A stretch of 64,000 nt of DNA from a virus, in IMG/VR virus record IMGVR_UViG_3300049719_000183, positions 1 through 64,000 of that record; one strand, 5' to 3'. The notes under the pieces were generated by a model that saw only the letters and a list, made by a program, of their open reading frames with translations, did not search any database and was not told the origin of the DNA. The first letter of the stretch is position 1. Every line of letters starts with the position of its first letter. Below are positions 1-15,162 of this stretch, one piece after another. Both the position numbers and the translations under genes were made by a program.

Positions 1-497
1 GGGTTTCTGTTGCCGCTGAATTTCGTGGCAGTGCCCGTGTCACCGGCCCGCAGTGTATCGGGCGTCACCTTGCTGTCCCTCATAGCTGCGTAGGAGTCCC
101 CGAGATTGAGCCAGCAGGTGCCATCATCCCTGAGCACTCGCTTCACCTCGTGAAAGACATCTACGAGACGAGCAACATAGGCTTCTGGCGATGACTCCTG
201 TCCAAGTTGTTCATCGATGCGTCGAGCCCCGCACTTGGCACATGTCTGGCGGGTGAGTGCAGCAACCCCGTCACGGTTTCTTTGGCCCCGATCATCGACC
301 ACGCCATCAGCCCTGCCAGCTCCGTTGCGGCCTTGCTTGTGGTCGCAAGCAGGGTCACCACCTTCCCATTTGGCTGTGCCGTAGTCCCTCAGGCCCCAGT
401 AGGGAGGACTGGTGACTGCCATGTGCACACTGTTATCGGGCAGCGTGCGAAGCTTCGCCAACGCGTCACCCTGCAATATCTGCAGTGTCGGCGTCAT
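1..497 (-). CDS. N4-C/N6-A DNA methyltransferase (beta class); 5' part only, runs off the window edge
   Basis: Manual translation from ATG 497: MTPTLQILQGDALAKLRTLPDNSVHMAVTSPPYWGLRDYG...RLVDVFHEVKRVLRDDGTCWLNLGDSY. SPPY catalytic motif; paralog of 56636..57727. Confidence 0.9.
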   Translation of the reverse strand, partial: MTPTLQILQGDALAKLRTLPDNSVHMAVTSPPYWGLRDYGTAKWEGGDPACDHKQGRNGAGRADGVVDDRGQRNRDGVAALTRQTCAKCGARRIDEQLGQESSPEAYVARLVDVFHEVKRVLRDDGTCWLNLGDSYAAMRDSKVTPDTLRAGDTGTATKFSGNRN

Positions 498-2081: not shown

Positions 2082-2284
2082 TTTTGACCGTATTCTCGAT
2101 TCAAGATGTGCAAGAAAACGCGGCCTTCCTCTCGCGTGCAACTGACCTCCAAATAATCCTGACCGCTCGCCGTTTGATAGCCCGGCTTGAAACTGAAGGG
2201 GGTTCCCGCCCGTATTAGGATGGAGCAGGCGTGGGTGGTTTTCTGCCAATTTTCACCACTGGAGAGGTTGAGTGATATTTTCAT
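2078..2284 (-). CDS. hypothetical protein
   Basis: 68-aa ORF coupled by ATGA overlaps on both sides. Confidence 0.55.
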   Translation of the reverse strand: MKISLNLSSGENWQKTTHACSILIRAGTPFSFKPGYQTASGQDYLEVSCTREEGRVFLHILNREYGQK

Positions 2285-4998
2285 CGGTCGTCTATGGCCT
2301 CTAAGAACCAGCTAGGAAGGTCTCTCTTCGTGCTGTGAATGAGGCGGCTGATGTCTGAATCGATGGCGTAGGTGACGCAGGTGTCGTCTTTGGCTCGCAT
2401 GCCCCTACCGCACGTCTGGACGAAGCACTTCACGGCCTCCATGTGATACCACTCAGGATCCCGAGCCATACGGGCCTTCACTACCTGATCGCCCAGGCTG
2501 GGATATTGGCACTTCAGAACGATTTGCCAACGGCACAGATCGTAGGCGAAATCAAAGCCCTCGAACAGGCTTGGGCTGATGAGGATGCTTCCAGGTGTCT
2601 CGGCGTGGCGCTTCATCGCTTCATCCCGAGCGTCTACATTTTCTGGGTAGGCGATTCGGCCTGCAAATCCAGCCTGAATGAGACCGTGCACAACCTCGTC
2701 GGCGAAGGCGTACGAGTGGGTGTGTATGACGCCTCGATCCGTGTGATTCTGGACAATCTTGGTGATGAGGCCCATCATGCGAGGTAGCATCACGTCCCTG
2801 CTCTGCTTGGCCAGGCTGCCAGCGTTGAGAAGGTGAATGGGGCGTCTTTCCTTGGCGAAATCGCTGGGAGCCTTGTAGTGCGCCACAGAGTCGGGATGCA
2901 GGCCCATCTCATGGCAAAACACTGACTTTCTCCCGATGAAGGCACTCATGTAGATGCGTCGGGGAAAGGCGTCGAAATAGTCGTGGAAAAAGGGGCCTAC
3001 ATCGATGGGTTTGCAGAGGATGGTGAGATTCTTCGTGCGCTCGTTCACGTCGTGCCAGTACACCCAGCCGCCAGGATCCGCTTGAAGCCGCTTGTAGGCG
3101 ATGGACACCCGCTCGTACTCCTGTTTGGCCTCGAATATCTCCCGGGCGTCAGCATCCGATGAGCCGACATCCTCGGCCATCTCGATCAGCACCTTTAGAC
3201 GTTCGTAGCTCTCAGGCAGGAACGTGGCCCCGAGCCAGAAGATGAAATCATGGATGCTCGTGTTGAGCGACATCATCTCATCTGCCAGCGAGCGGTCCCT
3301 CTTGTATAACTTCTCGTAGCTCAACTCGATGCCGACAAGGGAAGTCAGGGTTTTTTCCAAATTGTGACAATTGTGAACTAGGACGCCGTTGGCGAAGTAA
3401 TTGTGGTTTCCCTCAACTTCGATATTGTAGACAAAACCGTCTGGGCACAGTCCTCCAAATGTTCCGTCACCTGACTGTTCCAAAATCTCAACACGATCCA
3501 CCCTAATTCTTTCAAACGTCGAGTCTTCCAAGAGTCCCTCGTCTTCTGTTGAAGGGTTCTGTGGCTGTTCCCGTCCACCTCTATCGCTAACTTGTACTCC
3601 ACAAGTCCAATGTCCATACGATAGCATTTCACTCGGGGCATTATTTCGGAGGGAGGGGTTTGAGCGTTCATTGGCTGCTCTTCTGGCTGAAAACCTCCCA
3701 TGCCAACCGCGAGTTCCATCTTCGGATTCAGTCCAAGGGTCTTTAACTTCTCGTACAGTTCCGTTTGCCATTTCGTTGGACCCCACCCATTGCCCCGACG
3801 CAGGGCCAATTTCTTTCCTTTCATTGAAATTTTTATCTTCTCTATGACGCCGGGTCGATGTACCGGGTTGTTCTGCCGCATGCGTTTTGAGATTTTCTTG
3901 GAATCCCGTAACTGGGTGCGCGTCATGGTTTCCGACCACACTGAAAGCGACCTGGCTCGGCAGCATTTCTCTGAACAATAAGCGTAACCGTGAGACTTGA
4001 AGCGTCCGAGCGACGACCAGGGTGGATTTCCGTACTCGCAAATAACTGGCCTTGAACAGTGCTTGCAGTTTGTTAGTGCCTGCTCTCGGTTCAATCTCCT
4101 GTGAATTTTGTAGCATTCTTCCGAGCAGCAGAAATAACCCAACCTTATGGCGTGTCTGTTTTGATAGCCCGGCTTGTGAACCGCACGGTAAGCGTATCTC
4201 CGACAAACCACGCAGCGGTAAACGATGGGTTCTGCGGTGCACATACCTACCTTCTGTGTTTTTGGCTGGGATGTAAGTATCATCTGAGAAAAATGGGTGG
4301 TTGGGTGTGCAAATTATGCAGCTTTTGTCAGAAAACACCAACCTACACAGGGCCTTAGGCTGTGACCTAAATACCTTAGTAATAGTACTTAACTCAACAT
4401 TTTTAGTGATGTGATTGAAACTATGCAGGGCGTCTCCAACGTGTAATAGATTTATAGGGGTTGTGTCTATAACTACAGTGGATGGAAAACATTCATCCAG
4501 CACCAGCACAGCCCTTGGATACATGCTCTTCACGTACGCCGCATCGGTTAGGAAATAGGCGTAGTTGGTGACACCCAAAATGCTGTTCAGGAACAGGTCC
4601 TTCTGTATTTTGTAGGCGCACTCACCCGCTTTTTTCATCGGGCACGGTTTCACAGCGAGGCCACAGAATTTGAACCTTGGGCACGGGTATTCGATGGCGC
4701 TCTTGATGAGCTGAGCGCTGAAACCTCCCACCCCGAAGCGACCCAGGTCTGTGGCAATCTGATCCTGCAGGGCCTTCTGGACCACGAGCATGTAGCCCCC
4801 GGGTTGCAGTAGCGGATCGTTTGTGGGTCCACTCAGCCACCGGCACAGCGTGGCGCCCACTGCTGTTTTGCCGAATCCTGTAGGCGCTTCGATGATGATG
4901 TCCTGGTATCCCTTCGCAAGTGCATCCTCCGTGAAGGCCAGAGCCTCCACTTGTGGCTCCCGAGGGACAGGCAGTGGGAAATAATCGAGGGCAGGCAT
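2281..4998 (-). CDS. DinG/XPD(Rad3)-family SF2 helicase precursor containing an intein
   Basis: Q motif REPQVEA, Walker A APTGFGKT, 4-Cys cluster CPRFKFC..C..C, spliced Walker B VLDECHN, EGFDF and QTCGRGMR motifs. Alternative start at 5040. Confidence 0.9.
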   Translation of the reverse strand: MPALDYFPLPVPREPQVEALAFTEDALAKGYQDIIIEAPTGFGKTAVGATLCRWLSGPTNDPLLQPGGYMLVVQKALQDQIATDLGRFGVGGFSAQLIKSAIEYPCPRFKFCGLAVKPCPMKKAGECAYKIQKDLFLNSILGVTNYAYFLTDAAYVKSMYPRAVLVLDECFPSTVVIDTTPINLLHVGDALHSFNHITKNVELSTITKVFRSQPKALCRLVFSDKSCIICTPNHPFFSDDTYIPAKNTEGRYVHRRTHRLPLRGLSEIRLPCGSQAGLSKQTRHKVGLFLLLGRMLQNSQEIEPRAGTNKLQALFKASYLRVRKSTLVVARTLQVSRLRLLFREMLPSQVAFSVVGNHDAHPVTGFQENLKTHAAEQPGTSTRRHREDKNFNERKEIGPASGQWVGSNEMANGTVREVKDPWTESEDGTRGWHGRFSARRAANERSNPSLRNNAPSEMLSYGHWTCGVQVSDRGGREQPQNPSTEDEGLLEDSTFERIRVDRVEILEQSGDGTFGGLCPDGFVYNIEVEGNHNYFANGVLVHNCHNLEKTLTSLVGIELSYEKLYKRDRSLADEMMSLNTSIHDFIFWLGATFLPESYERLKVLIEMAEDVGSSDADAREIFEAKQEYERVSIAYKRLQADPGGWVYWHDVNERTKNLTILCKPIDVGPFFHDYFDAFPRRIYMSAFIGRKSVFCHEMGLHPDSVAHYKAPSDFAKERRPIHLLNAGSLAKQSRDVMLPRMMGLITKIVQNHTDRGVIHTHSYAFADEVVHGLIQAGFAGRIAYPENVDARDEAMKRHAETPGSILISPSLFEGFDFAYDLCRWQIVLKCQYPSLGDQVVKARMARDPEWYHMEAVKCFVQTCGRGMRAKDDTCVTYAIDSDISRLIHSTKRDLPSWFLEAIDDR
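3374..3589 (-). repeat. copy 1 of a near-identical tract shared with 13956..14171 (inverted orientation)
   Basis: 3468-3589 is the reverse complement of 13956-14077 (122 bp); 3374-3444 is the reverse complement of 14101-14171 (71 bp); a 23-bp divergent patch lies between. Confidence 0.95.
3378..4244 (-). CDS. nested +1-frame endonuclease inside the intein (Cys Zn-finger repeats, NUMOD3-like segment, DUF559/Vsr-like nuclease)
   Basis: CVVC..CCSEEC and CKHC..CSEKC; RMRQNNPVHRPGVIEKI; YRMDIG..KLAIEVDGNSH..RD..LKELGWIVLRFWN. ATG 4244 follows an AAGGTAGGT RBS (alternative start 4283). Confidence 0.85.
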   Translation of the reverse strand: MCTAEPIVYRCVVCRRYAYRAVHKPGYQNRHAIRLGYFCCSEECYKIHRRLNREQALTNCKHCSRPVICEYGNPPWSSLGRFKSHGYAYCSEKCCRARSLSVWSETMTRTQLRDSKKISKRMRQNNPVHRPGVIEKIKISMKGKKLALRRGNGWGPTKWQTELYEKLKTLGLNPKMELAVGMGGFQPEEQPMNAQTPPSEIMPRVKCYRMDIGLVEYKLAIEVDGNSHRTLQQKTRDSWKTRRLKELGWIVLRFWNSQVTEHLEDCAQTVLSTISKLRETTITSPTAS

Positions 4999-5044
4999 AA
5001 AGATGTTTACAGGCTGAGTTCTTTGAAGAACTGTGCGCACCTCG

Positions 5045-5050
5045 TAGTTA
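5045..5050 (+). promoter_or_regulatory. TAGTTA start-proximal motif (representative of about 15 copies; putative late promoter)
   Basis: TAGTTA/CAGTTA lies 3-5 nt before the start codons at 5056, 6489, 7006, 20194(-), 20225, 20362, 21270, 24220, 33493, 33803, 56604(-), 59094 and 62927. Confidence 0.7.
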
Positions 5051-5055
5051 GAAAT

Positions 5056-5565
5056 ATGAACGACCTGTTCAAGTTGCTGTTTGAAGACCTTCCAGAACCG
5101 GATGACGAGGTCATGCGGCTACTTGAGGCTGCCGAAAGGGTGGAAAAGTTGGAGGTGAAGAAGAAGCCCTTGGCAGACGCCCTGAAGGACCTCCACATCG
5201 AGGACGTGGAGCTTACAGCAACACCTGACGGTGTGCTAGCCACATGGAACAGTGATGTGAGCTTCCACACAGACACGGAAAGGCTCGGATTACCCGATGT
5301 TATCACTCAGCTAGCCGGTCACGGATGGGTTCCCGTGTGCGGTGGAGACACTCGCCCGGGCGATGAGTCGCCCAACTACACCTGGAAGTTTCTTGAGGTG
5401 GACGAGGTTCCCTATTCCAGCGATGATGAGGCCCCATCCTCGGAGGAACAGGCAGCCACGGCCATGAAGTTCAACGGTTTTGCCAAGCAGGACCAGACGA
5501 CTACTGAGCCCCCCATGCAGGGAGATGCCCGAGCCCTGAAGGCTCTCAAGAAGGGAAAGAAGTGA
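5056..5565 (+). CDS. acidic hypothetical protein, putative head-associated
   Basis: Start MNDLFKLLFED follows a TAGTTA motif. Confidence 0.65.
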   Translation: MNDLFKLLFEDLPEPDDEVMRLLEAAERVEKLEVKKKPLADALKDLHIEDVELTATPDGVLATWNSDVSFHTDTERLGLPDVITQLAGHGWVPVCGGDTRPGDESPNYTWKFLEVDEVPYSSDDEAPSSEEQAATAMKFNGFAKQDQTTTEPPMQGDARALKALKKGKK

Positions 5566-5825
5566 GCCCTGCTCGTGAACGGATAGATGCCCTGTTCGAG
5601 CGTGCGCGGGGGCCGCACCAGGAGGAACCCTTTGACACGGTGGGATTCATCATGGCCTTCGAGAATGGTGAGTTGGACGAGCAAGAGGTCGCTGAAGGAT
5701 TTCAACATCTGATCGACAGTGGCGTGGTCTGGCAGCTTCAGGGAATGTACGGCAGGACCGCCGCTGACCTCATCAGGAACGGTCTGTGTCAAGACACGCA
5801 TGGCGTACTCGCCAAAAACCAATGA
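5562..5825 (+). CDS. small phage protein with N-terminal RERIDALFE tag
   Basis: FQHLIDSGVVWQLQGMYGRTAADLI resembles a common small phage protein; translationally coupled to the upstream gene. Confidence 0.7.
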   Translation: MSPARERIDALFERARGPHQEEPFDTVGFIMAFENGELDEQEVAEGFQHLIDSGVVWQLQGMYGRTAADLIRNGLCQDTHGVLAKNQ

Positions 5826-6481
5826 GTGACGCATTCTGGGAGACCATTGCATGGCACGAGGCCCACACGCCCCCTTTTCCGCCCATCCTGGAGGCCTATA
5901 GAGGCACCGAGGTGGTGGAGTGGTGGGGACGCATCGAGCGTCAGCTTGTGGACATGGTTAACCGCTTCGAGACCAGCCGGGACTTCGAGAGCAAATCCAA
6001 GGCTCAGGAAGCGCTCGACATCTGGAGGCAGAACCAGATCTCTGGCAGCATCAACATCGAGACAATCAAGGCGCTTGAGTCTGGAATGCGCATCCTGGCC
6101 GTCGATACGTGGAATCAGAGCAATTATTTTGCGGCTCTCCGTGACAGCCTGCGCAAGCTGGTGGCGGGCCAGGAGGAACTGCCCCCGATGCCTGATGAGA
6201 CAGGTGGCATGGGTGGAGGCGGCGGTGGCGGCGGTGGTGGTGGAGGCGGCGGTGGCCCCAATAAGCCCATTGTGGGTGGACCGGAGGAGAACCCTGAGGA
6301 GGGCGGCCCCGAGCCGAGCCAGGACTTTGGCCCCGAGAAGGAACCCGGAGAGACACCTGATCAAGAGGGCAAGGCCGTACCGCCCGAAGGGGAGGAACCA
6401 GCGGGTGCCCCAGGTGGTGGCGCAAGAAATCCGAGATCCAAGCCCAATCCCCTCGACAGACTTCTGAGAGGCAAACAGTAG
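5822..6481 (+). CDS. hypothetical protein with poly-Gly and acidic/Pro tail (possible head-assembly protein)
   Basis: (GGY)n run at about 6203-6256; low-complexity C-terminus. Confidence 0.65.
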   Translation: MSDAFWETIAWHEAHTPPFPPILEAYRGTEVVEWWGRIERQLVDMVNRFETSRDFESKSKAQEALDIWRQNQISGSINIETIKALESGMRILAVDTWNQSNYFAALRDSLRKLVAGQEELPPMPDETGGMGGGGGGGGGGGGGGGPNKPIVGGPEENPEEGGPEPSQDFGPEKEPGETPDQEGKAVPPEGEEPAGAPGGGARNPRSKPNPLDRLLRGKQ

Positions 6482-12309: not shown

Positions 12310-15162
12310 GTGATCACCCTCAAGGAGACTGCCACCCGTCTGATAGCTGCAGGACCGAAGGCCGAGACAAGCCTCATCATAGATCACTTTCGTTTTCAGC
12401 CTCCCGATTACTGGAGGAGCCCTCGTTATCAACTTTACAGGGAGACTGGCGGCGAACGGGGCTGGAACGGCTACGTCTACCCGGCGCAGCGCCAGAAGGA
12501 TGGTTCAGTGGTTCTCGGTCGCGGTCACAAGGACGAACTTCTGAGTTTGCTGGAGGTGGAGGGCGTTCAAGTTGATGGCGAGCGCCTCCTGGAGAGTCCA
12601 TTTCAGTCACTCACTCCAGATGACATTCCAGACGATCTCCTGCCCGGGTTCGAGCACGAGCTAACGCATGATCAGAGGGCCTGTGTCCTGACGTTGCTGA
12701 GGTACAGCTTCGGATGTGTGCGTGTGTCAGTGTCTGGAGGCAAGACGGCCATCTTTTTCGCACTGGCAGCCATGATCAAGAGCCGACACCCGAAGGCCCG
12801 TTGCCTGTATCTGGTGCCCACGGAGCGCCTGGTGAAGCAGGTGACCAAGGAGGGCCGGAAGTTTCTCCCCGACTGGCACATCACCCAATTCGGTGGTGAT
12901 GAGAAGGACAGCACGGGTGCCGATGTGGTGGTTGCCACGGTGGCGACACTCAACAAGCGCTACAAGTACCTGCTCCTCGACAACTGGTTCAAGACGTTCA
13001 TGGTGCTGCTGGTGGATGAATGTTTTCCCTGCAACACTCAGGTAAATGGACGGTGCATTTCTGACATTTTACCCGGCGATAGGGTTCCCTCCTGCAACCA
13101 CCAGACAGGTTGCATTGAATTACGCAAAGTAACGCGCATTTTTAGGTCAAAACCCTCTGCAATGTGTCGTCTTACACTATCAAATGGTAAAACCCTACTC
13201 TGCACCCCGGGACATCCCCTGTGGACGGGAACCAGGTACACACCAGCTATACTATGTTTAGGAGAGAAGATGGTGTACTTAATAAATGATAAAGAAGATA
13301 ATAGAGGGTCACTCGGAGTGTGTAGTTTGCCACGCTATGGCAGAGGTGAGATACGACAAGAAACCCTATTATCGGAGCCCCCAAGCAGTGTACGGGGGTC
13401 AGTTTGTGTGCTCCGGCGCCTGCAAACAGAAACGACGCAGAAATCTTGTGCGGAAGGCCCGGAACACATCCAGCTATGTGATAAAAAAATTGGTTGTTAT
13501 CTGCAACAACTGTGGGAAGCCTGTAAATTGTCGTGGAGGACGGTCAAAACTTCCCTACTATCAACGGTTGGGGGCTGCTCGGAAGGGGCGTGCCTATTGT
13601 TCAGAAGAATGCAAGAAAGCTTGGTCCACCTCCCGTTGGTCTTCTACTATGAGACGAACAAATATACGGGATCGTGCCATTATTTCGGCTCGAATGAAGA
13701 CAAACAACCCCTCCTCAGACCCAGAAATCTCAGCCAGAATAGGGCAAAAATTGAAGGGGCGTGCAATGGCTCTTCGTGCTGGAAATGGCTGGGGGTTCAC
13801 AAAGTGGCAACTTATTTTGAACGAAGCTCTAAAGTTGGAGAACTTATCCACAGAATTGGAGTTTCCGGTCCCATTCCATCACCACATACCTGCGGAGGGC
13901 GAGCCTCCTCCCCCAAAATGCCACATGATAGACATTGCGCTACCTCTGTTAAAGATAGCGATAGAGGTGGACGGGAACAGCCACAGAACCCTTCAACAGA
14001 AGACGAGGGACTCTTGGAAGACTCGACGTTTGAAAGAATTAGGGTGGATCGTGTTGAGATTTTGGAACAGTCAGGTGGAGCGACACACATCGCTGTGTGT
14101 CCAGACGGTTTTGTCTACAATATCGAAGTTGAGGGAAACCACAATTACTTCGCCAACGGCGTCCTAGTTCATAATTGCCACCACCTGTCATCGGGCAAGA
14201 CGTGGCAGACCATCGTTACCAGCGTACCTGCCTTTTATAGATTTGGGGCCAGTGACGGGTTGAAGAACGAGCGCAAGGACGATCTTCAATTGGGCATCAC
14301 CCTGCGTGGCTTCCTGGGTCCTGAGCGACATGAAGTGAGTCTGCTGCCACTCATCAACAACTCGCTTGTGGCGAAGCCCTACATCTATCTCGTGGATGTG
14401 CCCGAATGGAACAAGCGATTTGACGACTTACCTCACACAGCCGAGGCAGGATCCATCGCCTGGGCTGTCATCGACGGAGATTGGAAGCAGGGAACGTACA
14501 TTTGCCCTGCCTCTGACGAGGATGAGGATGGTGATGACATCCGTCGTCTAGGCTGGCAGCGTGTCATGATCGATGGCGAGGAGGTGGAGGTGGAGAGTCG
14601 TTGGTGCCTCCTCAGAAGGGCCTATGATGAAGGCATAGTTCGCTTCAAGGAGCGCAACACTTTCGTCGTGAATTGGGCGAAACACTTCTCGGACCAGGGC
14701 AAGCCCACGCTCGTGGTGGCTACCAGGACGGCTCACGTCTACATCCTGCAGACGATGATGGAGGCGGCAGGGCTGCAGCCGAAAGTGCTGACAGGCATGT
14801 CCACCTCGAAGGAGCGGGATGAGACGTTCGAGTGGCTGGTCAACACAACCGGCTCCATACTCATCAGTCCCATCGTGAAAGAAGGCGTGTCACTGCCCGA
14901 GCTGCGGGCGGGCATTGTGGCTGATCCTGTGGCCTCACCAGATCTGGCCCGTCAGATCATAGGCCGCTTCATCCGCACGAAGAAGACAGGATCCAACGAG
15001 GCCGAAGTGGTGATGTTCATCGACCGCCAGTACAAGTCGGCCAGGTATAACAGCATGGCCCTGATCAAGCAGTTGGAGAAAATACGGGGCTATAGCTTCT
15101 ACTACCCCTGCCAGGGTCCTGACAAAATCGGCCCACTTTTCGAGGCCGTGTCGATGTTCTAG
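12310..15162 (+). CDS. UvsW-like SF2 DNA helicase precursor containing an intein
   Basis: SVSGGKT, YLVPTERLVKQ, spliced LVDECHH, EGVSLP and QIIGRFIR motifs. Confidence 0.88.
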   Translation: MITLKETATRLIAAGPKAETSLIIDHFRFQPPDYWRSPRYQLYRETGGERGWNGYVYPAQRQKDGSVVLGRGHKDELLSLLEVEGVQVDGERLLESPFQSLTPDDIPDDLLPGFEHELTHDQRACVLTLLRYSFGCVRVSVSGGKTAIFFALAAMIKSRHPKARCLYLVPTERLVKQVTKEGRKFLPDWHITQFGGDEKDSTGADVVVATVATLNKRYKYLLLDNWFKTFMVLLVDECFPCNTQVNGRCISDILPGDRVPSCNHQTGCIELRKVTRIFRSKPSAMCRLTLSNGKTLLCTPGHPLWTGTRYTPAILCLGEKMVYLINDKEDNRGSLGVCSLPRYGRGEIRQETLLSEPPSSVRGSVCVLRRLQTETTQKSCAEGPEHIQLCDKKIGCYLQQLWEACKLSWRTVKTSLLSTVGGCSEGACLLFRRMQESLVHLPLVFYYETNKYTGSCHYFGSNEDKQPLLRPRNLSQNRAKIEGACNGSSCWKWLGVHKVATYFERSSKVGELIHRIGVSGPIPSPHTCGGRASSPKMPHDRHCATSVKDSDRGGREQPQNPSTEDEGLLEDSTFERIRVDRVEILEQSGGATHIAVCPDGFVYNIEVEGNHNYFANGVLVHNCHHLSSGKTWQTIVTSVPAFYRFGASDGLKNERKDDLQLGITLRGFLGPERHEVSLLPLINNSLVAKPYIYLVDVPEWNKRFDDLPHTAEAGSIAWAVIDGDWKQGTYICPASDEDEDGDDIRRLGWQRVMIDGEEVEVESRWCLLRRAYDEGIVRFKERNTFVVNWAKHFSDQGKPTLVVATRTAHVYILQTMMEAAGLQPKVLTGMSTSKERDETFEWLVNTTGSILISPIVKEGVSLPELRAGIVADPVASPDLARQIIGRFIRTKKTGSNEAEVVMFIDRQYKSARYNSMALIKQLEKIRGYSFYYPCQGPDKIGPLFEAVSMF
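13286..14167 (+). CDS. nested +1-frame endonuclease inside the intein (Zn-finger repeats, NUMOD3-like segment, DUF559/Vsr-like nuclease)
   Basis: CVVC..CSGAC and CNNC..CSEEC; RMKTNNPSSDPEISARI; MIDIA..KIAIEVDGNSH..LKELGWIVLRFWN. TATACT at 13248 and an AT-rich leader upstream. Confidence 0.85.
   Translation: MIKKIIEGHSECVVCHAMAEVRYDKKPYYRSPQAVYGGQFVCSGACKQKRRRNLVRKARNTSSYVIKKLVVICNNCGKPVNCRGGRSKLPYYQRLGAARKGRAYCSEECKKAWSTSRWSSTMRRTNIRDRAIISARMKTNNPSSDPEISARIGQKLKGRAMALRAGNGWGFTKWQLILNEALKLENLSTELEFPVPFHHHIPAEGEPPPPKCHMIDIALPLLKIAIEVDGNSHRTLQQKTRDSWKTRRLKELGWIVLRFWNSQVERHTSLCVQTVLSTISKLRETTITSPTAS
13956..14171 (+). repeat. copy 2 of the shared intein 3' tract
   Basis: See 3374..3589. Confidence 0.95.

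Follow-up and report, generated by a model that had tools for sequence, protein, structure and literature searches.

A predicted homing endonuclease gene nested in the +1 reading frame of an intein in a viral DExH-box helicase

Can an intein carry its homing endonuclease as a separate gene, written in another reading frame of the DNA that encodes the intein itself? The question is raised by a helicase gene in a 64,000-nucleotide (nt) stretch of viral DNA (positions 1 to 64,000 of the IMG/VR virus record IMGVR_UViG_3300049719_000183), which is referred to below as the window. A preliminary description, made from the sequence alone, had reported an intein of 374 amino acids (aa) at positions 3370-4491 and an endonuclease gene in the +1 frame of the same strand. 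We consider it very probable that the locus is a composite selfish element, in which a class-1 intein in the DExH box of a helicase carries its homing endonuclease as a separate gene nested in the +1 frame. As judged from the comparison of sequences, the element represents a new large and under-annotated family within an already described architecture and not a new class.

The intein and its nested gene

The host gene, the intein and the nested gene, all on the minus strand, comprise the following features (open reading frame is abbreviated as ORF, and predicted local distance difference test as pLDDT; pN/pS is the ratio of nonsynonymous to synonymous differences per site).

2281..5040, minus strand: host gene 1, an SF2 helicase of 919 aa with a DinG/Rad3-like C-terminal domain, interrupted by the intein (ORF and Pfam)
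4492..5040, minus strand: N-extein of host gene 1
3370..4491, minus strand: intein copy 1, class 1, 374 aa, helicase residues 184-557 (Intein_splicing profile and splicing blocks)
2281..3369, minus strand: C-extein of host gene 1
4222..4491, minus strand: N-terminal splicing domain, intein aa 1-90; only the host frame is coding here (AlphaFold2 pLDDT 91-98 with beta strands; substitution pattern)
3532..4221, minus strand: host-frame "linker", intein aa ~91-320, stop-free, predicted to be disordered and unconserved as a protein (pLDDT, pN/pS, codon shuffles)
3381..3531, minus strand: dual-coding stretch, with the C-terminal splicing domain (blocks F/G) in the host frame and the last nuclease strand and helix in the +1 frame
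3378..4244, minus strand: nested predicted homing endonuclease gene, +1 frame, 288 aa plus TAG (ORF, DUF559, pN/pS, AlphaFold2)
4245..4253, minus strand: Shine-Dalgarno-like AAGGTAGGT abutting ATG 4244 (sequence)
about 3963..4244, minus strand: zinc ribbons of the nested endonuclease, two CxxC...CxxxC units
about 3633..3962, minus strand: helical middle of the nested endonuclease
about 3381..3632, minus strand: DUF559/Vsr-like nuclease domain

Host gene 1 matches the Pfam families Helicase_C_2 (E 3.6e-17) and ResIII (6e-5). Intein copy 1 separates DE from CH in helicase motif II, and its excision brings these residue pairs together into an intact DExH motif. The intein starts with Cys1 (CFPSTVV), ends with VLVHN and is followed by Cys+1, and its block B contains the TxxH motif, of which T62 and H65 are nearly invariant across 78 aligned inteins. 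The Pfam profile Intein_splicing matches the excised intein with 37.0 bits (cut-off 35.8) at both ends only, in agreement with the normal terminal splicing blocks reported earlier, and the Pfam scan of the host frame detected no domain in the middle. By its Cys1, TxxH and HN/Cys+1 residues, its Pfam profile and its predicted HINT-type ends, the interval 3370-4491 is assigned to the class-1 inteins. The AlphaFold2 models, which were built with 78-sequence alignments, are beta-rich at both ends of the host-frame intein, with pLDDT values of 91-98 for residues 1-90 and of 81-98 for residues ~325-374; residues 91-320 have pLDDT values of 41-54 and no secondary structure. The middle of the intein, described previously as lacking a recognizable domain, is thus also predicted to be disordered over ~230 aa, and the model does not contain the conserved folded domain that would have been an alternative explanation for this region.

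The open stretch of the +1 frame in copy 1 spans positions 3378..4283 (minus strand) and includes an alternative upstream ATG at 4283. The nested ORF that starts at ATG 4244, next to AAGGTAGGT, has a TAG that ends 8 nt short of the intein end, exactly as first delimited. Its product matches the Pfam family DUF559 with 44.5 bits (E 1.6e-11, cut-off 20.6) and also MTES_1575, and DUF559 was found in 78 of 78 relatives scanned, so that the nuclease identity proposed for the +1 frame is backed by profile matches throughout. Among the modules that had been assigned to this protein, the Zn-finger repeats, here recognized as zinc ribbons, and the DUF559/Vsr-like nuclease stand, whereas the NUMOD3-like helix does not, since no Pfam match to NUMOD3 was obtained in the +1 ORF of copy 1 at E <= 0.1. 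The N-terminal modules detected in the 78 relatives include zf-FCS in nine proteins and NUMOD3 in two.

The model of the +1 product has a mean pLDDT of 87.7 and consists of zinc-ribbon-type beta hairpins, a helical region and an alpha/beta C-terminal domain. The Foldseek comparison of the nuclease domain retrieved 3hrl (TMt 0.80), the catalytic domain of I-Bth0305I, 3r3p (TMt 0.76), and 1vsr (TMt 0.45), with modest E-values ranging from 1.8e-3 to 5.4e-2, none of them <= 1e-3. At the level of sequence profiles, the domain matches 3hrl with an E-value of 1.8e-13 and 3r3p only weakly (E 0.024 over 57 residues). Residues C60, C63, D211, D224, G225, H228, D237, W249, R253, F254 and N256 are invariant in the 78 sequences, and E222 is conserved in at least 90% of them. 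By analogy with Vsr and I-Bth0305I, the residues D211, E222, D224, H228 and D237 constitute a putative catalytic set. In its predicted structure, the +1 product is a folded DUF559/Vsr-like nuclease with zinc ribbons.

Relatives, selection and the second copy in the window

The +1 protein matches 40 phage records (37 from Vibrio, two from Corynebacterium and one from Pseudomonas phages), and among the matches listed each falls under a coding sequence labelled helicase or "coil containing protein". In the annotated isolate phages CP-T1, MR14, phi673 and a Vibrio lentus phage, the endonuclease is in the +1 frame relative to the helicase coding sequence in four of four cases; annotated phage genomes label the whole intein region simply as "helicase". 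Pattern scans, built on an alignment of seven +1 ORFs, identified 424 relatives among viral contigs, and contigs of prokaryotic genomes yielded at least 306. These patterns were read in the endonuclease frame, and therefore the phase of the host gene is not biased by the search. The best 80 relatives from each DNA collection were kept for analysis, and the 167 loci examined comprise 165 fetched loci, including a few duplicate records, and the two copies present in the window.

The endonuclease is nested at phase +1 in a much longer ORF of the same strand in 148 of the 167 loci, and neither nesting at phase +2 nor an endonuclease in frame inside an intein was observed in any of the 167. Iterated searches with hidden Markov models (HMMs) revealed intein N- and C-blocks flanking the endonuclease in 143 of the 148 nested loci. 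The other 19 loci include 13 stand-alone genes and six weak matches to long DUF559-containing proteins, and have no intein blocks apart from one marginal match. The six long in-frame proteins and several of the weak stand-alone matches (58-64 bits) were rejected from the family as generic DUF559 proteins without intein blocks. Two members are found on contigs of metagenome-assembled genomes from archaeal and candidate-phyla-radiation bins, namely L120 (Woesearchaeota) and L144 (Paceibacterota).

The insertion site and the splicing residues were counted in 130 unique nested loci. The N-extein ends with DE in 118 of them, and the C-extein begins with CH in 97 and with CK in 16. All 130 inteins start with Cys, their C-terminus is HN in 113, SN in 16 and AN in one, and the +1 residue is Cys (127 loci) or Ser (3). 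The nested stop codon is located 8 nt before the intein end in 53 loci, other distances being 44, 23, 50 and 11 nt. The host proteins of the relatives include ResIII/Helicase_C, SNF2-related, ERCC3-like and methyltransferase-fused helicases, and both window copies and the 148 nested loci have one uninterrupted host ORF. A library of 5.8 billion proteins contains 30 matches to the nested endonuclease, many of them on contigs of 1-3 kb; among its longer proteins no in-frame fusions were found at E <= 1e-5, which is weak evidence. In the virus record of the window itself, gene calling gave only a 167-aa piece of the nested gene.

Selection on the two frames was compared using 15 independent close pairs, for which the differences in codon alignments were counted by host codon positions 1/2/3. 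The exteins have 707/503/1626 differences and pooled pN/pS values of 0.28 in the host frame and 1.46 in the +1 frame; the respective values for the intein N-domain are 352/201/540, 0.36 and 0.77, and in both regions host codon position 3 changes most. In the intein middle (751/277/228 differences; pN/pS 1.50 in the host frame vs. 0.22 in the +1 frame) the maximum is at host position 1, that is, at the third position of the +1 frame, which implies that the middle is maintained as a +1 protein. Over the last ~45 intein codons to the endonuclease stop (55/32/54 differences; pN/pS 0.44 in the host frame and 0.50 in the +1 frame), divergence is low and evenly spread, and thus both frames are constrained. 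The +1 frame is under purifying selection in the middle and both frames are under purifying selection over the last ~150 nt, whereas in the host frame of the middle selection keeps only the absence of stops. The per-frame comparison across homologs, in which the +1 ORF is open, thus supports the gene as initially proposed; the proposed dual coding where its C-terminus overlaps blocks F/G is borne out as well, by these two ratios and by the confident folds predicted for both products.

The openness of the host frame was assessed by synonymous codon shuffles of the +1 ORF, which left the host frame stop-free in 0 of 5000 cases for either window copy, with a mean of 12.1 (copy 1) and 15.0 (copy 2) host-frame stops per shuffle. 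In the 130 unique loci, ~8 host-frame stops are expected on average and none is observed (third frame, ~13.5). The open host frame across the nested gene is far beyond chance, and the idea that the intein frame is kept stop-free holds for both copies.

The second copy of the element is located in another helicase gene of the window, on the opposite strand.

12310..15162, plus strand: host gene 2, an SF2 helicase of 950 aa with ResIII/DEAD/Helicase_C domains (ORF, domain search)
13021..14175, plus strand: intein copy 2, 385 aa, at the same position between DE and CH, starting with Cys, ending with VHN and followed by Cys (tblastn)
13286..14167, plus strand: nested +1 endonuclease gene of copy 2, 293 aa (ORF)
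3370..3589 (minus strand) and 13956..14175 (plus strand): near-identical 3' block of 220 nt (121/121 nt, a 23-nt divergent patch, 72/73 nt)

The two helicases have unrelated exteins, with only a 27-residue motif in common. Between the ATG and the catalytic core, the identity of the two copies amounts to 42.6% in the +1 frame (87/204) but only 23.9% in the host frame (48/201), and outside the 3' block the two elements are ~45% identical. The 3' block encodes the catalytic core of the nuclease as well as the C-terminal domain of the intein, and the similarity stops exactly at the intein end. Such near-identity up to the intein boundary points to an exchange between two inteins of one genome, and suggests recent gene conversion or partial ectopic homing inside one phage genome. 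Both endonucleases thus appear to have the same catalytic module on different zinc-ribbon modules. Loose contig ends at 3364 and 3593, obtained from peat sequencing runs, belong to copy 2 via this common block. The whole virus record (72,485 bp, estimated as ~32% complete) contains just these two copies.

These data bear on the strongest alternative explanation, according to which the +1 ORF in the window is a relic with an inactive endonuclease, and only a mini-intein with a junk linker persists. Homing endonucleases commonly decay once they are fixed, as in the homing-cycle model, and such a state would be in keeping with it; moreover, a decayed relative exists (L163, see below), and an intein-less allele was not seen in four peat runs, which yielded short low-depth contigs, none joined across the intein. 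We nevertheless regard a relic as improbable, because both window copies have full-length +1 ORFs with every family-invariant residue, the +1-frame pN/pS across the family is as low as 0.22, and the same DNA of the two copies is better conserved in the +1 frame than in the host frame.

Two further ORFs were noted at the start of the window. The first, of 231 aa (5786-6481, plus strand), adjoins helicase gene 1 upstream on the opposite strand, in divergent orientation, and encodes ~15 consecutive glycines and a Pro/Glu/Gly-rich tail. The second (3-497, minus strand) runs past the window start and carries the SPPYW motif, which we take to be the one typical of N4/N6 DNA methyltransferases.

Expression, origin and mobility of the element

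The start of the nested gene is conserved among its relatives. In 109 of the 130 unique loci, the first CxxC is preceded by an ATG at a distance of no more than 25 codons (median, 5 codons), and the median position of this ATG corresponds to intein residue 88, directly past the N-terminal splicing domain. One of the motifs GGAG, GAGG or AGGA is located 5-17 nt upstream of this ATG in 43 of the 109 loci, the frequency at control positions within these host ORFs being 11% (binomial p 2e-14). A stop codon of the +1 frame precedes the ATG within one codon in 17 of the 109 loci, including copy 2, where two in-frame stops, TAA TAA, come immediately before ATG 13286. The presence of own ATGs, the enrichment of Shine-Dalgarno-like motifs and the adjacent upstream stops favor internal initiation over frameshifting, and by these signals independent initiation appears as the likeliest expression route, in line with the independent translation suggested in the preliminary description. 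In the window, the scan of positions 2200-5400 for sigma-70 promoters and terminators gave no more hits than expected from shuffled sequences, and none of them was a candidate for an internal promoter on the minus strand. In the one RNA library among the four peat-metagenome runs, two error-free contigs map to the C-extein and the intein N-domain, with DNA carry-over being possible.

Programmed ribosomal frameshifting from the helicase/intein frame would instead produce a fusion of the N-extein, the N-terminal part of the intein and the endonuclease. It would be compatible with a nested ORF that is on the same strand and always in phase +1, and with the +1 frame of copy 1, in which no stop occurs over the 23 codons before ATG 4244. 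We consider this route very unlikely, since it conflicts with the two stops directly before the ATG of copy 2 and with the stops in the 17 relatives mentioned above, as well as with the conserved ATG position and the 3.5-fold enrichment of Shine-Dalgarno-like motifs.

The origin of the nested gene is suggested by the stronger stand-alone relatives, which have the same domain order as the nested endonuclease.

L091:2995-3600, L086:3004-3645, L079:2911-3597, L089:1564-2205 and L018:2953-3591: free-standing endonucleases

Each of these five genes is immediately followed by an SF2 helicase gene without intein, whose 5' end it usually overlaps by some tens of bases, an arrangement resembling that of phage free-standing homing endonucleases next to their target gene. 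The DExH box is intact in the helicases beside L079, L086, L089 and L091. The helicase beside L018 (L018:3560-5084) consists of two overlapping ORFs in different frames that are split near motif II (123 aa with GxGKT, and 396 aa), and no DExH was found in either of them; it could reflect a frameshift error, a scar or a fractured gene. The last nuclease helix is variable in the stand-alone proteins and fixed as CVQTVLSTISKL in the nested copies, because there the same bases encode intein block F. We propose that the family probably arose by the entry of a free-standing, helicase-targeting endonuclease into a mini-intein at motif II, whereby the endonuclease tail would have been overprinted on blocks F/G and the +1 phase locked. 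Two loci with inteins between DE and CH appear to represent mini-intein stages of this family, in which the endonuclease has been lost: in L163 (intein of 139 aa) nothing but the last ~49 codons of the +1 ORF is left, and in L147 (206 aa) nothing but its 3' tail. The family may thus display all stages, from a free-standing gene beside a helicase gene, via a nested gene in a contiguous intein, to mini-intein remnants.

The same free-standing relatives, adjoining intein-less helicase genes, could also indicate that the nested nuclease has been recruited mainly for a purpose other than homing, namely for the exclusion of competitors by cutting their helicase genes, or for defense. A similar placement is known for the marker-exclusion endonucleases of T-even phages, and one phage keeps two copies with the same catalytic block. 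This explanation seems hardly tenable for the nested copies, of which 143 of 148 are framed by intact splicing blocks at one conserved site, which is the signature of homing; besides, exclusion and homing are not mutually exclusive. Finally, since the virus record that contains the window is metagenome-derived, the layout might be an artefact of sequencing or assembly, i.e., two compensating indels in an ordinary in-frame domain. This explanation is practically negligible, because the phase is identical in 148 independently assembled loci, among them the isolates CP-T1, MR14, phi673 and Vibrio lentus phages, the nested ORF has its own start and stop, and the codon-position substitution pattern switches phase exactly as expected from a real second gene.

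For the composite selfish element, the following sequence of events is proposed. Ribosomes in the helicase frame would synthesize a precursor with the ~230-aa disordered linker between the HINT halves, from which the intein would splice out and restore the DExH helicase. Other ribosomes would start at the internal ATG (4244 in copy 1, 13286 in copy 2) and synthesize the free endonuclease, which would cut helicase alleles without intein in or close to the conserved sequence of motif II, and repair would then copy the intein together with the endonuclease gene into the cut allele.

Several points weigh against this interpretation. With regard to initiation, the purine-rich motif abuts ATG 4244 and leaves a short spacer, the nearest GGAG in copy 2 is located ~20 nt upstream of the ATG, and a Shine-Dalgarno-like motif is present in only 39% of the relatives. 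Efficient splicing with a disordered insert of ~230 aa is assumed, and the near-identical 3' block could stem from ordinary gene conversion without any endonuclease activity. In the four peat runs, whose contigs did not join across the intein, an intein-less helicase allele was not seen, so that this particular copy is only putatively mobile, and translation, cleavage, homing and splicing are inferred steps for all members of the family.

A broader interpretation, which we put forward tentatively and to which we give somewhat less than even credence, is that the family ranks among the most widespread intein-endonuclease partnerships and constitutes an ancient element of two genes locked in phase, where separate translation of the endonuclease is the selected state and no transient accident, since no in-frame version was found among the 167 loci. 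If this is true, the impression given in print, that out-of-frame intein endonucleases are rare curiosities, does not hold. The family largely escapes gene callers and domain scans, as seen from 30 library proteins vs. more than 700 relatives at the DNA level, and surveys that consider only in-frame domains would class the middle of such inteins as unknown or degenerate. The loci provide a natural data set on two proteins encoded by one DNA stretch, where the last nuclease helix and blocks F/G are both selected, as well as on how free-standing endonucleases become intein partners and on what advantage there might be in making an endonuclease apart from its host protein. The combination of variable zinc-ribbon modules with a conserved Vsr-like cutter, presumably directed to helicase motif II, may also be of interest for nuclease engineers.

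Comparison with known systems

The nuclease domain has its best sequence and fold match in 3hrl, the "endonuclease-like protein" NGO0050 of Neisseria gonorrhoeae, which, in contrast to the nested protein, is a single-domain cellular protein of ~100 aa with uncharacterized function, without zinc ribbons and without intein context. Among homing endonucleases, the nested protein is similar to I-Bth0305I (PDB 3r3p), the EDxHD enzyme from the recA group I intron of Bacillus phage 0305phi8-36 (Taylor et al., 2011; PMC3239194). Both have a Vsr-like catalytic fold with a conserved Glu/Asp/His/Asp set, and a modular architecture in which an N-terminal DNA-binding region is followed by the C-terminal nuclease. 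However, their sequence relation is weak, and the NUMOD2 and helix-turn-helix (HTH) modules of I-Bth0305I are replaced by zinc ribbons; N-terminal NUMOD/HTH modules of the EDxHD family were likewise not found in the window copy. Furthermore, I-Bth0305I is a homodimeric, intron-encoded enzyme, whereas the protein described here is encoded within an intein.

The arrangement of the genes recalls the fractured genes in which a Vsr-like or GIY-YIG endonuclease gene is located between the halves of a split intein (Dassa et al., 2009; PMC2677866). As in these, a Vsr-like gene with free-standing relatives lies between the N- and C-terminal intein parts in phage genes of DNA metabolism, and its 3' end overlaps the C-terminal intein part (by 6-69 bp in the fractured genes). 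The fractured genes consist of two ORFs whose products are spliced in trans, whereas here the host frame is one continuous ORF, and therefore the intein is contiguous and its splicing would be in cis. The ShiLan-type insertions of hidden HNH endonucleases in phage methylase genes (Arsenault et al., 2025; PMC11855218) also represent nested out-of-frame endonuclease ORFs with a host frame kept stop-free; those insertions have no detectable splicing domains, whereas a complete intein frames the ORF in the present family.

The closest parallels are non-canonical inteins, and the question whether such an architecture had been reported before, which the preliminary description could not check, is to be answered in the affirmative, since both out-of-frame and antisense endonucleases inside inteins are already in print. 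Gosselin, Arsenault and Gogarten (10.1101/2025.01.02.630785) described actinophage inteins with antisense LAGLIDADG genes, antisense VSR-like genes and same-strand "frame 3" endonuclease VII-like genes, hosted by DNA polymerase, minor capsid, terminase and thymidylate synthase genes, and cited Gorbalenya (1998) for earlier out-of-frame cases. Phillips, DeSimone and Gogarten (10.64898/2026.09.14.751524) reported a "+2ORF" LAGLIDADG endonuclease in cyanobacterial dnaX inteins with the same frame-dependent pattern of dN/dS. A same-strand +1 DUF559/Vsr-like endonuclease in helicase-motif-II inteins was not found in the full texts searched, which do not cover many journals, and the supplementary lists of the 2025 preprint may hold a helicase case; in the accessible parts of these sources, no non-canonical case shares the endonuclease type, phase and host found here. 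The family described in this work resembles the non-canonical inteins in having an endonuclease ORF inside the intein in another frame, with the host frame open, and in its proposed origin from an intein invaded by a free-standing endonuclease, and it resembles the dnaX case in the low dN/dS of the endonuclease frame and its raised value in the host frame. It differs from them in the combination of a same-strand +1 frame, a DUF559/Vsr-like nuclease, zinc ribbons and insertion in helicase motif II, and, whereas the authors of the non-canonical inteins stress their rarity, it comprises hundreds of loci.

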